48,422 bases of DNA, taken from NCBI GenBank assembly GCA_038740245.1, contig JAVYLZ010000003.1, positions 1-48,422 on the forward strand, written 5' to 3'. Positions within the stretch are counted from its first letter, which is position 1, and each line of letters starts with the position of its first letter. The translations under genes were made by a program, and so were the position numbers. The notes beneath the pieces are model-generated. The model had not been told where the DNA came from and did not search any database. It was given only the letters and a program-made list of their open reading frames with translations. This DNA is from Candidatus Micrarchaeia archaeon (lineage in GTDB: Archaea > Micrarchaeota > Micrarchaeia > CAILAH01). Of the stretch, positions 3,973 to 28,185 are shown in pieces.

Positions 3973-4106
3973 TAAAGCACCGCATTACTTGGTAGAGGAA
4001 GTAATATATATACTTATCATTTCAAGAAAAGTTTATATTGGTGTTGCATTTTACCGGCCAGGTATCAAAAGCACACAGCCAAAATCAGTCGTAAGCACGG
4101 CGAGAG

Positions 4107-4118
4107 TTATATAAAGGT
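4107..4118 (+). promoter_or_regulatory. TATA-box-like element upstream of tRNA-Ile
   Basis: GTTATATAAAGG is centred about 25 nt upstream of the tRNA 5' end (4137). Confidence 0.45.
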
Positions 4119-4136
4119 TATGTAATTTAATAAAGC

Positions 4137-4420
4137 GGGCCAGTAGCTCAGCCTGGTCAGAGCGCCGGTCTTATATGGCCACGCCTGATATAACAATTCA
4201 GGTGCCAAGAGTAGCATCAGGGCTCTGAGAGAGCCGGATGTCGGGAGTTCAAAGCAGGGCCCCAGCGGGCCCCGCACCCCTTGCAACCAAGCAAGTGAGG
4301 CAGGGCCCCAGCGGGCCAGCATGCGCTTTGCGCATGTGGCCTGCAAACATTCTGTTTGCACGGCCCCGCACCCCTTGCAACCAAGCAAGAGATGCACTGT
4401 TGGATGTCTCCCCTGGCCCA
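4137..4420 (+). tRNA. tRNA-Ile (anticodon UAU) with two introns: 4176-4231 at position 37/38 and 4254-4406 at position 59/60 in the T-loop
   Basis: Hand fold: the acceptor stem GGGCCAG/CTGGCCC pairs 7/7. D-arm is GCTC-AGCCTGGTCA-GAGC. Anticodon stem is CCGGT/GCCGG with loop CU-UAU-A..A. T-stem is GGGAG/CTCCC with loop TTCAAA|intron|T. The discriminator is A. Confidence 0.75.
4254..4389 (+). repeat. Direct repeats inside the tRNA-Ile T-loop intron
   Basis: GCAGGGCCCCAGCGGGCC occurs at 4254-4271 and 4300-4317. GGCCCCGCACCCCTTGCAACCAAGCAAG occurs at 4268-4295 and 4362-4389. In the second copy the two halves are separated by a segment holding two perfect hairpins: ATGCGC-TTT-GCGCAT (4321-4335) and TGCAAACA-TTC-TGTTTGCA (4342-4360). 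Confidence 0.9.
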
Positions 4421-4437
4421 CTAAGGGTAATATCCAA

Positions 4438-4773
4438 ATGGCAAAAAAGCGCCTAAGCGCGAAGCGCCGTGAAGCCCGCGGCAGCATCGCCGCCGAGCGC
4501 GTGCATATCCTGCTGGGGATTGCCGCGGACATGCACCGCAGAGGGGACGATAAAACTGCAAGGGAATGCTGCGCACTCGCGCGCAAAATAATGCTGCGAT
4601 ACAGGATCCGTATGGGAAAAGATGCTGGCGTACGGTACTGTAAGCGGTGCTTTATGCCTTGGATAATCGGCGATACTGTCAAGGTCCGGCTTGACAGCAA
4701 CAGGCGGTGCGTTGAGTACACATGCGTGTGCGGCCACCGCAAAAGGTACGGCTATGTGAAGAGAGGTGTATAA
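4438..4773 (+). CDS. rnp4: RNase P protein component 4 (Rpp21/Rpr2 family)
   Basis: The sequence is MAKKRLSAKRREARGSIAAERVHILLGIA...ARKIMLRYRIRM..RYCKRCFMPW..V(R)L...YTCVCGHRKRY, which includes the zinc ribbon. ATG lies 18 nt after the tRNA-Ile 3' end. Confidence 0.85.
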   Translation: MAKKRLSAKRREARGSIAAERVHILLGIAADMHRRGDDKTARECCALARKIMLRYRIRMGKDAGVRYCKRCFMPWIIGDTVKVRLDSNRRCVEYTCVCGHRKRYGYVKRGV

Positions 4774-5190
4774 ATGGCAGATGTTTACGGGATTGAGCCG
4801 AATAAGCTCATAAGCGAAGTTGCAAAAAAACTGGAGGAGCGGGAGGAAATTAAGCCGCCTAAGTTTATGGCATACAGCAAAACCGGCCCACACGTTGAAT
4901 TCGGCCCGGAGAGCAAGAGGTTCTGGTACGTGCGCTGTGCATCCATACTTAGGCAGGCGTATGTGAACGGCGAGGTCAGCGTTGGCGGGCTGCGCGTGCA
5001 CTACGGCGGCAGGAAACGGCACAGGGTTGCATCCGCACACCACGTTGATGCGGGCGGCTCGGCGATACGAAAAGCGATGCAGCAGCTTGAGGCTGCCGGG
5101 CTTCTCAAGAAAGGCCAAAAGCGCGGCAGGGTCCTCACAAGCGAAGGCATAAAGCTGCTCAACTCTATTGCCAAGGGCATAAAGGAGTGA
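4774..5190 (+). CDS. rps19e: 30S ribosomal protein S19e
   Basis: Motifs present: VYGIEPNKLISEVAKKLEE..IKPPKFMAYSKTGPHVE..WYVRCASILRQ and GGSAIRKAMQQLEAAGLL. Confidence 0.9.
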   Translation: MADVYGIEPNKLISEVAKKLEEREEIKPPKFMAYSKTGPHVEFGPESKRFWYVRCASILRQAYVNGEVSVGGLRVHYGGRKRHRVASAHHVDAGGSAIRKAMQQLEAAGLLKKGQKRGRVLTSEGIKLLNSIAKGIKE

Positions 5191-5192
5191 GA

Positions 5193-5495
5193 ATGATGGA
5201 TGAGGAAGAGCTGGACGAAATCCGGAAGCGAAGGATTCAGGAACGGCTCAAGGCAGCCTACCTTGAAGAGCGCAAGAAAGAGCTCTTGGGCAAGTTCCTT
5301 GAGGGCGCTGCGTACGAGCGGATGATGAACGTCCGGCTGTCCAATCCAGAGGTTTATGACAAGGTAGTTGAGGTTATAGTCCAGCTTGCGGCGAGTGGCC
5401 GGCTGAGCAGGAAGCTCAGCGAGCGTGAGGTTCTGGCTATACTGGCCAGGGCGACCCACCGCCACGAGCCGAGCATTGAGATACGGAGGAAATGA
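5193..5495 (+). CDS. DNA-binding protein of the PDCD5/TFAR19 family
   Basis: The sequence [12 protein letters not shown]...[47 protein letters not shown] matches this family. It also sits in the conserved position between S19e and L39e. Confidence 0.8.
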
Positions 5496-5680
5496 TTATG
5501 GCAAATGTTGACATCAGGAGGAAAAAGAAGGTAATCCTTGCAAAAAAGTGCAAGCAGAACCGGCGTGTGCCTGTATTTGTCAGTGTGAGGACAAAGCGCG
5601 ATGTTGGCGACAACCCAAAGCGGAGGTACTGGCGGACCAGGAAGCTTAAGCTCAGCAAGGAGAAAGTAATGAAGATGTGA
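5492..5680 (+). CDS. rpl39e: 50S ribosomal protein L39e
   Basis: The motif [35 protein letters not shown] matches L39e. GGAGGA lies upstream. Confidence 0.85.
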
Positions 5681-5681
5681 G

Positions 5682-6092
5682 GTGCTTGATGTGGAAAGGA
5701 TATACAATGTAAGCCTTAGCAAGGTTTATTCAATCGGCAGGCACAGGGAGCGTGCACGGAAGGCAATCAAGATGGTGCGCGGCTTTGCAGCGAGGCATAT
5801 GAAAACACCCGAGGAAAAAGTTGTCATCGGGATGGACGTTAATGAGCTCATCTGGCAGAACGGCATGCAGCGGCCTCCGCGGAAGCTGCGGCTGAAGATG
5901 CTCAAGGACAAGGACGGCACTGTAATGGTCTCGCTTGAAGCGGCCGCAAAAGCGCCTGTTGTGAAAAAGGAGAAGGATGCAGCGAAGAAGCCGGAAAAGG
6001 CAGATGCGAAGGCGCCCGCTGCCGAGGAAGCAAAAAAGGGCGCTGAAAAGCCGGAAGCTGCAGCGGCAGGCGCTGCCACGCAAAAGGCATAA
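5682..6092 (+). CDS. rpl31e: 50S ribosomal protein L31e with a C-terminal tail of about 50 aa rich in Lys/Ala/Glu/Pro
   Basis: The L31e core is ERIYNVSLSKVY..RRERARKAIKMVRGFAARHMK...VNELIWQNGMQRPPRKLRLKM. It has a GTG start. The tail is AAAKAPVVKKEKDAAKKPEKADAKAPAAEEAKKGAEKPEAAAAGAATQKA. Confidence 0.85.
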   Translation: MLDVERIYNVSLSKVYSIGRHRERARKAIKMVRGFAARHMKTPEEKVVIGMDVNELIWQNGMQRPPRKLRLKMLKDKDGTVMVSLEAAAKAPVVKKEKDAAKKPEKADAKAPAAEEAKKGAEKPEAAAAGAATQKA

Positions 6093-6095
6093 AAA

Positions 6096-6770
6096 ATGAT
6101 AAAGATAAGCTACCACGGCAACCCGTACATCGGGATATACCTGCGTGCCAGCGATAAGGTGGCGCTGGTGCCGGAGGATACCCCGCACAAGCTCAGGTCC
6201 GCAATAGAGTCGCGGCTGGGCGTTGCTGCAGTGAGCACAAGCCTGTGCGGGTCGGGCCTGCTGGGCATATATTCGGCGATGAACAGCAGGGCGGTTATCG
6301 TGCCGCACATTGCATACGCATCTGAGGTCAGGCAGATACGGAATGAATGCGGGCTTGAGGTTTGCCAAATTGAAACAAAAAACACTGCAATAGGGAACCT
6401 TATTGCATGCAATGACTGCGGCGCAATAGTATCCGAGGCAATTGAGCCGACAAATGTGCGCAAGATTGCTGATGCGCTTGATGTTGAGGTTGTAAGGGGG
6501 CGCATCGCTGGCTACCTCACTGTGGGGAGCGCGTGCGCCGCAACAAACAAGGGGTTCATCATACACAACGATGCCTCCGATGAGGACTTTGAGATGGCGG
6601 AGGGCGTGCTAAAGGTGGAGGGCATAAATTCCACCGTAAACTTCGGGTTCCCGTTCCCGAGCTATGGTGTGGTAGCCAACTCAAACGGGTTTATTGCAGG
6701 TGAAAAATGCACGGGCATTGAGCTTATGAGGGCTGAGCAGGGGCTCGGCCTTTCAGGCAGGAGGATTTGA
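6096..6770 (+). CDS. eif6: Translation initiation factor 6 (aIF6)
   Basis: The sequence MIKISYHGNPYIGIYLRASDKVALVP...LCGSGLLGIYSAMNSRAVIVP... shows the repeated aIF6 pentein pattern. The gene sits in its conserved neighbourhood. Confidence 0.9.
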   Translation: MIKISYHGNPYIGIYLRASDKVALVPEDTPHKLRSAIESRLGVAAVSTSLCGSGLLGIYSAMNSRAVIVPHIAYASEVRQIRNECGLEVCQIETKNTAIGNLIACNDCGAIVSEAIEPTNVRKIADALDVEVVRGRIAGYLTVGSACAATNKGFIIHNDASDEDFEMAEGVLKVEGINSTVNFGFPFPSYGVVANSNGFIAGEKCTGIELMRAEQGLGLSGRRI

Positions 6771-10872: not shown

Positions 10873-12354
10873 TCATTCCCCGCCCATTATACTCCTAAGC
10901 TGCGGATACATCTCAAACATCTGCCGCTGCTCCATCTCTTCATACATCCTGTACAGTATGCCCGCAGTGAGCAGGATACCAGTACCCGTGCCGATTGCAC
11001 CCGTAAGGTCGGCGCATGCGGCAAGAAGGCCCACAAAGCCGCTGCCAAGCACCGTGATTACCGGGATGTATTTTGAAAGTATCTTCTCAATCATGCGCTC
11101 ATCGCGCCTGAAGCCCGGCACTGACAAGCCAACGCGCTTTAGCTGGGCCGCGACGTCGCGCGCAGTCATGCCCGAGGTCTCGGTCCAGAGATAGCCGAAC
11201 AGTATTGACAACAGGACAAGGCTGGCTGCATAGATAACCGCGTGCACGTATTCAGGGACAAACACCGCGCCAACGAACGGCACAAGCAGCGTCTGGCCGC
11301 TTGTCATAATGAGGTTCATGTACACTGGCATGCCCCCGGCGATGGCAAGCGGATTGGGGAACGACGGGGTTATAAGATAAAGCAGGCCGCCGTCAAGCTG
11401 CCCTGCCATGTTGTAGTTTGCGAGGAATGCCGCCACATTCACTCCACCGAGTTCAAATGTCATGCCTGCAAGCACCCTGCCAAACAGCTGCACTGAAGAC
11501 AGGAAGGCAAATGCAAGTATCACCGGCATGTTTGAGGTGTAAAGGAACTTGATTGGGTACCTGCCGCCATAGCCGGCCGCCTTGTCAAACGCAAGCGGGA
11601 CCTCCACCTTTATGCCTTCAGCGTATACTGAAACCGCAAACACAATAAGCGTTGCTATTATCGGCGCAAGGACTATTATCGCAGACGGGATTGCGTTTGC
11701 GCCGCCCTGCAGCAGGTGGTATGCGAGCGTGTTTGACTCGGGTATGCCACCATACCCTGTAACTATGCCTATGAAGCCGGACACCACGGCGATAGAGACA
11801 CCGCCCGCGATGAACAGGCCGATGCCGCTGCCTATGCCGTATTTTGAGATTACCTCATCAAAGTAAAGCAGCAGGATTGAGCCCAGTGCAATCTGGACCG
11901 CAACGAGTATCCTGACGCCAAGCTCGCCCATAACAGGGTAAAGCGCGGTGTCAAGCTGCATCATATTTGTGTATATGAACGCCTCAAACAGCGCAAGCAG
12001 TATGGCCAGAAGCTTTTGCGTGCCCTGGAACAATGCCTTGTTGCGGGGCTGCGACAGGTCAATGTTGATTAGCTTGGCGCCCACAAAAAGCTGCAGGAAT
12101 ATTGACGCCAAAACTATCGGGCCGATACCGATTGTTATCAGCGAGCCCATTTTTGACGCAAGCACCAGCTGCAAAAACTCCGTCTTGGTATCCTTGCTTA
12201 TCACCACACCCGTCGGGTATATGTGGTACATCACAAAGAAAAGGACAAGGATGCCAAGGGTATACATCAGCCTCTGGTTAAGGGTCGGCTGCACAACCGG
12301 CATCTTCACTTCCGGCAGCTTGGCAACAACCGGCCTCAGCGGCTCAAGGTCCAT
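10873..12354 (-). CDS. secY: Preprotein translocase subunit SecY
   Basis: This is a 10-TM protein in the conserved position after L15, with typical SecY motifs (..LGILVLFFVMYHIY.., GSLITIGIGPIV, ..GTGILL..). The start is ATG 12354; GTG 12363 is an alternative. Confidence 0.95.
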   Translation of the reverse strand: MDLEPLRPVVAKLPEVKMPVVQPTLNQRLMYTLGILVLFFVMYHIYPTGVVISKDTKTEFLQLVLASKMGSLITIGIGPIVLASIFLQLFVGAKLINIDLSQPRNKALFQGTQKLLAILLALFEAFIYTNMMQLDTALYPVMGELGVRILVAVQIALGSILLLYFDEVISKYGIGSGIGLFIAGGVSIAVVSGFIGIVTGYGGIPESNTLAYHLLQGGANAIPSAIIVLAPIIATLIVFAVSVYAEGIKVEVPLAFDKAAGYGGRYPIKFLYTSNMPVILAFAFLSSVQLFGRVLAGMTFELGGVNVAAFLANYNMAGQLDGGLLYLITPSFPNPLAIAGGMPVYMNLIMTSGQTLLVPFVGAVFVPEYVHAVIYAASLVLLSILFGYLWTETSGMTARDVAAQLKRVGLSVPGFRRDERMIEKILSKYIPVITVLGSGFVGLLAACADLTGAIGTGTGILLTAGILYRMYEEMEQRQMFEMYPQLRSIMGGE

Positions 12355-27983: not shown

Positions 27984-28004
27984 GCGTGCACCATAATATC
28001 CTGG

Positions 28005-28185
28005 GGCCCGTGAGGTAGCCTGGATAGCCTACAGGGCTTCGAATGCCCCTCCGCACCGTGCGGAGCACGGGGGTTACCCTGGAGTATGGGTTCAAAGCAG
28101 GGGATCTGCCGCCCCTGCAACCCCAGGCAAGTGCTTGGTGTTGCGATGCGGCTGATTTGCTCATCGGAAATCCCATCGGGCCCGT
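28005..28185 (+). tRNA. tRNA-Arg (anticodon UCG) with two introns: 28044-28076 at position 37/38 and 28098-28171 at position 59/60
   Basis: Hand fold: the acceptor stem GGGCCCG/CGGGCCC pairs 7/7. D-arm is AGGT-AGCCTGGATA-GCCT. Anticodon stem is CAGGG/CCCTG with loop CU-UCG-A..A. T-stem is ATGGG/CCCAT with loop TTCAAA|intron|T. The discriminator is G. Confidence 0.75.

Follow-up and report, generated by a model that had tools for sequence, protein, structure and literature searches.

Two archaea outside the lineage studied here, Nanoarchaeum equitans and Korarchaeum cryptofilum, encode a tRNA-Ile with a UAU anticodon, and they are the sole two to do so among 167 genomes (PMC6000648), a count that is so low because DPANN MAGs were unsampled in that set. 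In Korarchaeum the tRNA-Ile(UAU) gene is interrupted by one intron and is similar to the tRNA-Ile(GAU) gene found in that genome (PMC6000648). ARMAN-2, -4 and -5 also have a tRNA-Ile(UAU) and are without TiaS and tRNA-Ile(CAU) (Fujishima et al. 2011, PMC3239211), so that the earlier note on the present sequence, which listed Nanoarchaeum and Korarchaeum as precedents, was incomplete for ARMAN/Micrarchaeota. The pre-tRNA-Ile(UAU) of ARMAN-2 has an intron of 25 nt at position 37/38, which the epsilon2 EndA splices out in vitro (PMC3239211). ARMAN-2 also has introns at the T-loop position 59/60, one of 13 nt in tRNA-Cys(GCA) and one in tRNA-Pro(GGG), which is interrupted at both 53/54 and 59/60, and the Cys precursor with its 59/60 intron is cleaved by the epsilon2 EndA (PMC3239211). 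The anticodon, the absence of TiaS and both intron positions described below are therefore already published for ARMAN/Micrarchaeota (Fujishima et al. 2011, PMC3239211).

The movement of tRNA introns has been described in Thermoproteales, in which very similar introns are found in different isoacceptors (Fujishima et al. 2010, summarised in PMC4090602). This distribution implies that introns were gained by copying after the divergence of the tRNAs, by a mechanism that is unknown (PMC4090602). A 2026 census of tRNA introns in Asgard archaea found no general copying route and left the route of arrival open (bioRxiv 10.64898/2026.10.13.758758).

The window analysed here is the whole stretch of 48,422 nucleotides taken from contig JAVYLZ010000003.1. 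It belongs to an assembly of Micrarchaeia (DPANN) of 688 kb in 41 contigs, with 52% G+C and a completeness of 81%. The tRNA-Ile(UAU) gene is confirmed at positions 4137-4420 of the window, and its exons 4137-4175, 4232-4253 and 4407-4420, like all features given here for the locus, lie on the + strand and form a class I cloverleaf of 75 nt when spliced. Exon 1 (4137-4175, GGGCCAGTAGCTCAGCCTGGTCAGAGCGCCGGTCTTATA) covers tRNA positions 1-37 and contains the 5' strand of the acceptor stem, the D arm, the 5' strand of the anticodon stem and residues C32, U33, U34, A35, U36 and A37. Exon 2 (4232-4253, AGCCGGATGTCGGGAGTTCAAA) covers positions 38-59 and contains A38, the 3' strand of the anticodon stem, the variable region ATGTC (5 nt), the 5' strand of the T stem and T54 to A59. 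Exon 3 (4407-4420, TCTCCCCTGGCCCA) contains T60, the 3' strands of the T and acceptor stems and the discriminator A73 (A4420), is identical to the 3' exon of the tRNA-Ile(GAU) of genome G008, and is followed by no encoded CCA. The acceptor stem GGGCCAG/CTGGCCC has 7 of 7 Watson-Crick pairs, the D stem GCTC/GAGC 4 of 4 pairs and the T stem GGGAG/CTCCC 5 of 5 pairs, and the anticodon stem CCGGT/GCCGG contains a single G-U pair. The anticodon loop, CTTATAA, has 7 nt, with U33 and a purine at position 37, and the T-loop reads TTCAAAT.

In the native DNA of the window, neither ARAGORN nor Rfam at its gathering threshold gives a tRNA match at the locus, and a permissive Rfam scan of 4000-4500 returns a chance match to mir-345 alone. 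The spliced 75-mer is tRNA-Ile(tat) according to ARAGORN, and when 4254-4406 alone is deleted the program detects the gene with an anticodon-loop intron of 56 nt. The failure of the standard tRNA finders to call the native gene would fit a dead tRNA pseudogene, with a small MITE-like repeat inserted in its T-loop and AUA decoded by other means, as would two observations given below, the multicopy 90-nt repeat held by the insert and the lack of a detectable EndA in the assembly. The conservation of the gene, its splice-site structure, the decoding of AUA and the other tRNA genes of the genome all bear on this possibility.

Enumeration of the registers leaves UAU as the sole sensible reading of the anticodon from the sequence; other single-deletion registers in the anticodon loop were rejected, as each has G33, A34, or a Ser/Leu anticodon in a tRNA that lacks the long variable arm required for it. 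Of 41 genomes of the class, 22 contain the 33-nt core of exon 1, the 5' half of the tRNA ending in CTTATA, with no more than 3 mismatches. Three relatives have uninterrupted orthologs that read ...CTTATAAGCC... and ...GTTCAAATCTC..., which are exactly the two predicted exon joins, and these genes score 68-71 bits on the Rfam tRNA model and are tRNA-Ile(tat) according to ARAGORN. The earlier note had proposed a tRNA-Ile(UAU) that folds into a canonical cloverleaf on removal of 4176-4231 and 4254-4406, with introns of 56 nt at 37/38 and 153 nt at 59/60; its coordinates are exact, and both junctions match the three uninterrupted genes.

Seven orthologs have the 37/38 intron only, with a length of 14-50 nt. 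Five further orthologs are interrupted at both sites, their T-loop inserts measuring 31, 43, 66, 139 and 236 nt, and an insert also follows TTCAAA at a minimum of two partially parsed loci, those of G007 and G003. Across the orthologous tRNA-Ile(UAU) genes the T-loop intron is thus 0, 31, 43, 66, 139, 153 or 236 nt long, and the 37/38 intron lies at the same position in 13 parsed orthologs, with 14-56 nt. Exons are 85-100% identical to those of this gene across the class, with 100% in one congener. Introns are 17-61% identical among orthologs, except for the 37/38 intron of the congener (80%), and the T-loop introns of this gene and of the congener are unrelated and unalignable despite the exon identity of 100%.

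When the nine distinct spliced sequences of the orthologs are set on the cloverleaf, 100% of the cells are paired, and 8 of the 21 pairs show compensatory changes; the exon parser demanded stem pairing in the intron-bearing orthologs, which inflates the percentage for those rows and leaves the three uninterrupted genes unbiased. Since the uninterrupted orthologs match the junctions and none of 500 shuffles reaches the observed pairing and covariation, the cloverleaf is beyond chance, and slid registers drop to 25-50% paired. Exons that are identical to those of a congener and that covary across the class are not expected of a pseudogene.

[quoted passage not shown] Both introns have 3-nt bulges, a 4-bp helix and a flanking exon helix. 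In intron 1 (4176-4231, 56 nt at the canonical position 37/38) the central helix is formed by 4170-4173 (C32-A35) and 4226-4229, the bulges are 4174-4176 (UA/U, the slash marking the cut) and 4230-4232 (AG/A), and the inner helix is formed by 4177-4180 and 4221-4224, with C4225 unpaired. The 4-bp central helix of this intron, which is single-copy in the genome, keeps 4 of 4 pairs in the orthologs, and 3 of 4 in one. In intron 2 (4254-4406, 153 nt at T-loop position 59/60) the central helix is formed by 4248-4251 (TTCA, T54-A57) and 4401-4404 (TGGA), the bulges are 4252-4254 (AA/G) and 4405-4407 (UG/U), and the inner helix is formed by 4255-4257 and 4397-4399, with T4400 unpaired. Each motif is slightly relaxed, since one extra unpaired base (C4225 or T4400) lies opposite its 5' bulge. 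The folding check suggested in the earlier note was run, and it bears out that a 4-bp helix and 3-nt bulges can form at both junctions. The BHB-constrained fold is feasible (-128.9 kcal/mol, inner helices of 3-4 bp), and the unconstrained fold (-141.7 kcal/mol) exceeds it in stability by 12.8 kcal/mol, so that hairpins within the intron compete with the splice-site structure. The T-loop boundaries 58/59 and 60/61, inspected by hand, were rejected, as the central helix is lost in both.

The same motif recurs among the T-loop introns of the genome. The 59/60 central helix is complete in 19 of the 26 that were found at the BHB register and in 0-2 of 26 at other offsets, and it covaries with position 57, as TTCG is found with CGAA or CGGA, and TTCA with TGAA, TGGA or TGAG. 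Pairing at the splice site persists at precisely the BHB register, which argues against an inactive insertion.

With 46.8% of Ile codons and a frequency of 31 per 1000 codons, counted in ORFs no shorter than 250 codons, AUA is the commonest isoleucine codon of this genome, and a decoder for it is therefore indispensable. TiaS (PF08489, TiaS_FLD) is found in none of 31 genomes of the class, of which 23 have a completeness of 90% or more, and the four archaeal control genomes matched. The CAU tRNAs of the genome are only an initiator type (1663-1847) and an elongator type (C32, acceptor GCCAAGG), and the custom scanner, which misses genes with introns in the 5' half, found no third CAU tRNA, that is, no tRNA-Ile2(CAU), in this 81%-complete genome. 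Two loose CAU candidates, C4:5746 and C14:11243, were rejected, as they lie within coding sequence and are without a T arm. The earlier note had named a tiaS gene together with a separate CAU tRNA-Ile2 as the pair that would speak against its call, and neither was found. Judged from this gene content, the tRNA-Ile(UAU) gene is the only candidate AUA decoder in the genome. A dead locus would leave 47% of the Ile codons with no decoder found and no TiaS.

Charging of the UAU tRNA by IleRS is predicted, indirectly, from A73, from A37 and from an acceptor stem and T arm that match tRNA-Ile(GAU) exactly. This second gene, G000 C27:8965-9299, lies at a contig end and has the same acceptor stem GGGCCAG and T arm as the UAU gene. 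It has an anticodon-loop intron of about 275 nt, and the contig ends inside a T-loop intron that starts with GCAGGG.

Although nearly all tRNA genes of this 81%-complete assembly would need to be spliced, EndA was not detected in it, with the Pfam catalytic domain or with the protein of the congeners as query, and we assume that its absence is most likely an assembly gap at this level of completeness. All 30 relatives, both congeners included, have an EndA ORF of about 385-480 aa with two tandem EndA domains, which is the three-unit epsilon2 type. The earlier note had argued that T-loop introns need a splicing endonuclease of relaxed BHB specificity, and the enzyme of the relatives agrees with this, with none detected in the assembly itself. 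The ligase RtcB is present (PF01139 at C6:25708-27012, E = 3.3e-175).

About 33 tRNA genes were recovered with the custom scanner and inspection by eye, from a genome that is 81% complete and with a scanner that misses genes with introns in the 5' half. Among 27 genes examined, 26 have a 59/60 intron of 36-198 nt, which is usually accompanied by a 37/38 intron of 22-287 nt. The length of 153 nt, which the earlier note regarded as very long for the T-loop, is unexceptional in this genome and is exceeded by the 236 nt of one ortholog. The 26 genes with a 59/60 insert cannot all be dead, and the 90-nt repeat of the Ile intron lies at this site in tRNA-Lys(UUU), in both tRNA-Gly genes found and in tRNA-Arg(GCG). 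A pseudogene is thus extremely improbable at this locus. The comparisons make it very probable that 4137-4420 is a real and almost certainly functional tRNA-Ile(UAU) gene, with two introns of the EndA type and a predicted role as sole AUA decoder.

Intact GGTTCRAATCC T-loops, counted as a crude proxy, occur 6 times in this genome, while most of the family have 7-12 of them and most other families of the class 12-32. ARAGORN reports 13 tRNA genes in the genome and none in the window, which holds at least three. Double interruption affects nearly all tRNA genes here, and most of them are in consequence overlooked or wrongly assigned by standard finders. ARAGORN also gives wrong isotypes to intron-bearing genes (G000 C2:53850-53993 and C7:24567-24781; L024), calling Phe(aaa) for Thr(GGU), Thr(tgt) for Ser(UGA) and Tyr(ata) for Ile(UAU), so automatically generated tRNA annotations of these genomes cannot be relied on.

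Two further tRNA genes of the window are on its + strand. The initiator-type tRNA-Met(CAU) at 1663-1847 has the acceptor stem AGCGGGG/CCCCGCT and a G-C-rich anticodon stem, with introns of 47 nt at 37/38 and 63 nt at 59/60; it is overlooked by ARAGORN and Rfam and is overlapped by spurious ORFs. The tRNA-Arg(UCG) at 28004-28184 has introns of 33 nt (37/38) and 74 nt (59/60), the second of which has 98.6% identity with the T-loop intron of tRNA-Arg(UCU) on contig C40. At G000 C40:5750-5950 and C26:230-390 the 3' end of a tRNA-Arg and its downstream flank (TCCCATCGGGCCCGTCCCTAATTTTTGCCCGATGACAC...) are repeated about 70-130 nt further on, like the footprint of an att site or a MITE. Repeated introns were considered as a major cause of the fragmented assembly and rejected, as only 5 of 82 contig ends resemble pre-tRNA.

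The T-loop intron of tRNA-Ile(UAU) is a mosaic of short modules. It is laid out as module A (18 nt), module B (24 nt) and TGAG, followed by A, X (48 nt) and B, and then by a tail of 17 nt. Unit 1 (4254-4299), an internal repeat, consists of module A at 4254-4271, which is a hairpin GGGCCC-CAGC-GGGCCC, module B at 4272-4295 and the linker TGAG. The 90-nt repeated element (4300-4389) consists of A at 4300-4317, X at 4318-4365, which is a double-hairpin insertion, and B at 4366-4389. The tail AGATGCACTGTTGGATG (4390-4406) provides the 3' bulge and, for both the inner and the central helix, the 3' strand, and it is homologous to the tail TGATGCAATGCTGGAAA of the T-loop intron of the G008 tRNA-Ile(GAU).

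Other copies of the 90-nt element, 96.5-100% identical, lie at C5:11648-11737, C34:3793-3882, C8:15083-15172 and C6:19232-19317. Five tRNA genes, which serve four amino acids (Ile-UAU, Gly-CCC, Gly-UCC, Lys-UUU and Arg-GCG), contain the element, always at 59/60 and each time immediately 3' of the GGTTCAAA of a different tRNA gene; the copies thus share this 8-nt 5' flank, and they also share the 3' flank TC(C/T)C. Each copy has private substitutions, of which one is a compensatory pair in the module-A hairpin of the C8 copy, and the copies are therefore separate loci and no assembly artefact. The full-length element was found in no other of the 41 genomes searched, including two congeners, and GCAGGG follows 10 T-loops in this genome and 0-4 in each relative. 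Sharing extends beyond the element, as the entire T-loop intron of 193-198 nt is common to Gly-CCC, Gly-UCC and Lys-UUU. Further introns are common to the different anticodons of Arg-UCG and Arg-UCU, of Arg-CCU and Glu-UUC and of Gln-CUG and Val-GAC, and some of these are present as tandem triplications.

The modules are also found in related genera. In sister genera G006 (L028, G006:C2 about 11900-12200) and G008 (L032, G008:C7) T-loop introns repeat a unit of about 42 nt two or three times in tandem and continue with one unit that has an X-like double-hairpin insertion. The body of the T-loop intron of the G008 tRNA-Ile(GAU) is a single 42-nt A+B unit, plus the tail, and in G003 (L027, G003:C1) A+B units lie inside the anticodon-loop intron of tRNA-Gln(CUG). 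The hairpin of module A covaries across copies and genera, with the pairs GGGCCC/GGGCCC, GGGACC/GGTCCC and GGGGCC/GGCCCC.

Near-identical introns across isoacceptor families, together with presence/absence or replacement among orthologs, are the signature of copied introns. The 153-nt T-loop intron most likely stems, as the comparison of copies suggests, from copying at the DNA level, or from gene conversion, that took place recently between tRNA genes and was followed by tandem duplication. A wider reading has about an even chance of being right. It would make the T-loop intron a member of a modular family of BHB introns that has been copied very recently between tRNA genes at 59/60, with tandem amplification of 42-nt units and nested hairpin insertions, and that occurs as an anticodon-loop intron in a sister genus.

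The shared intron could also have been inherited vertically in a real gene and kept similar by concerted evolution, with gene conversion through the GGTTCAAA...TCCC flanks and no RNA-level mobility by reverse splicing and reverse transcription; we place this explanation a little below an even chance. The 8-nt 5' flank and the 3' TC(C/T)C that all copies carry would offer the required homology, tRNA-Ile(UAU) and tRNA-Ile(GAU) have acceptor stem, T arm and intron tail in common, and the whole intron of 193-198 nt shared by Gly-CCC, Gly-UCC and Lys-UUU fits conversion as well, a DNA-level process being favoured in the review literature (PMC4090602). However, homologous recombination would have to act on very short flanks of 4-8 nt, the tandem arrays and nested insertions require extra mechanisms, and the A+B module of G003 lies in an anticodon-loop intron, where the T-arm flanks offer no homology.

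Conservation of the 90-nt element for a function of the excised and probably circularised intron, for example as a structured small RNA, is improbable. Some archaeal tRNA introns carry C/D box sRNAs, the copies of the element are 96.5-100% identical while other T-loop introns diverge fast, and the covariation of the module-A hairpin between copies and genera would be expected of a structured RNA. On the other hand, no C/D box motifs were seen in the intron, and it has no Rfam match, since the one hit, by chance to a miRNA, scores 21.5 bits where the gathering score is 65. Recent copying alone explains the high identity, and the lack of the full element in the two congeners fits a recent burst better than conserved function.

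The gene is followed closely by protein-coding genes. The gene for Rpp21/Rpr2, a protein subunit of RNase P (4438-4773, +; Pfam PF04032, E = 3.4e-9), starts 18 nt 3' of the tRNA and is followed by those for S19e, a dsDNA-binding (PDCD5-like) protein, L31e and eIF6 (cluster 4438-6770, +). This is a conserved cluster for translation and RNA processing. The relatives of its S19e bear the names Candidatus Micrarchaeota, Micrarchaeum and Micrarchaeia. The order tRNA-Rpp21-S19e is kept in named Micrarchaeota MAGs, and co-transcription of the tRNA with Rpp21 is possible, since only 18 nt separate them. Upstream of the gene, a TATA-like box read from the sequence (TTATATAAA, 4107-4115, +) has its centre about 26 nt before tRNA position 1 and is a putative promoter element; the tRNA-Lys(UUU) gene on C8 is likewise preceded by an AT-rich TATA-like stretch at similar spacing.

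By analogy with ARMAN-2, transcription from this box would yield a precursor of 284 nt. The precursor would fold into two BHB motifs, in which the anticodon stem is extended by C32-A35 and the T stem by T54-A57, each paired with the 3' end of an intron. The three-unit epsilon2 EndA of the lineage would cut inside the 3-nt bulges at 37/38 and 59/60, RtcB would join the three exons, and CCA would be added later. Splicing of this kind, charging with isoleucine and some modification of U34 that blocks the reading of AUG are presumed for the mature tRNA.

These observations bear out a published rule and widen it to more genomes, namely that Micrarchaeia decode AUA by a genome-encoded tRNA-Ile(UAU) and not by an agmatidine-modified CAU tRNA and, in its second part, that the epsilon2 EndA of Micrarchaeia permits T-loop introns. 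What goes beyond the report of Fujishima et al. 2011 (PMC3239211) is the occurrence of 59/60 introns in 26 of 27 tRNA genes examined and of a 90-nt element common to five tRNA genes. The intron copies at one site, the 42-nt tandem arrays and the replacement of introns between congeners are direct sequence traces of recent copying. If the T-loop introns are a family that has recently copied itself, the Micrarchaeum-like lineage would be a natural system in which to study the arrival and the spread of archaeal tRNA introns. A lineage seen while copying is under way is useful because the Asgard census left the arrival route open (bioRxiv 10.64898/2026.10.13.758758). The repeated, modular T-loop intron is the part of the locus most worth following, beyond the tRNA itself.

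Among the described systems, the tRNA-Ile(UAU) of ARMAN-2 (Candidatus Micrarchaeum acidiphilum) is similar to the present gene in its lineage (Micrarchaeia), its UAU anticodon, the lack of TiaS and tRNA-Ile(CAU), its 37/38 intron and its epsilon2-type EndA, which is known here from relatives. While the ARMAN-2 gene has a single 25-nt intron and a strict hBHBh' motif, the gene described here has introns of 56 and 153 nt, and both of its motifs are slightly relaxed. The 59/60 introns of ARMAN-2 share the non-canonical T-loop site and a relaxed BHB with intron 2, but the latter is about 12 times longer than the 13-nt intron of tRNA-Cys, is modular and repetitive, and belongs to a genome in which 26 of 27 tRNA genes examined are interrupted at 59/60. 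The genes of Nanoarchaeum and Korarchaeum belong to unrelated lineages and are without a T-loop intron; as in Korarchaeum, tRNA-Ile(UAU) and tRNA-Ile(GAU) are alike here, sharing the acceptor stem and T arm. This genome resembles Thermoproteales in having very similar intron sequences across isoacceptors. Thermoproteales, however, belong to Thermoproteota and have an (alpha-beta)2 EndA, whereas the present lineage belongs to DPANN, with an enzyme of the epsilon2 type, and its intron copies are concentrated at 59/60, are up to 100% identical and include 42-nt tandem arrays and nested hairpin insertions.
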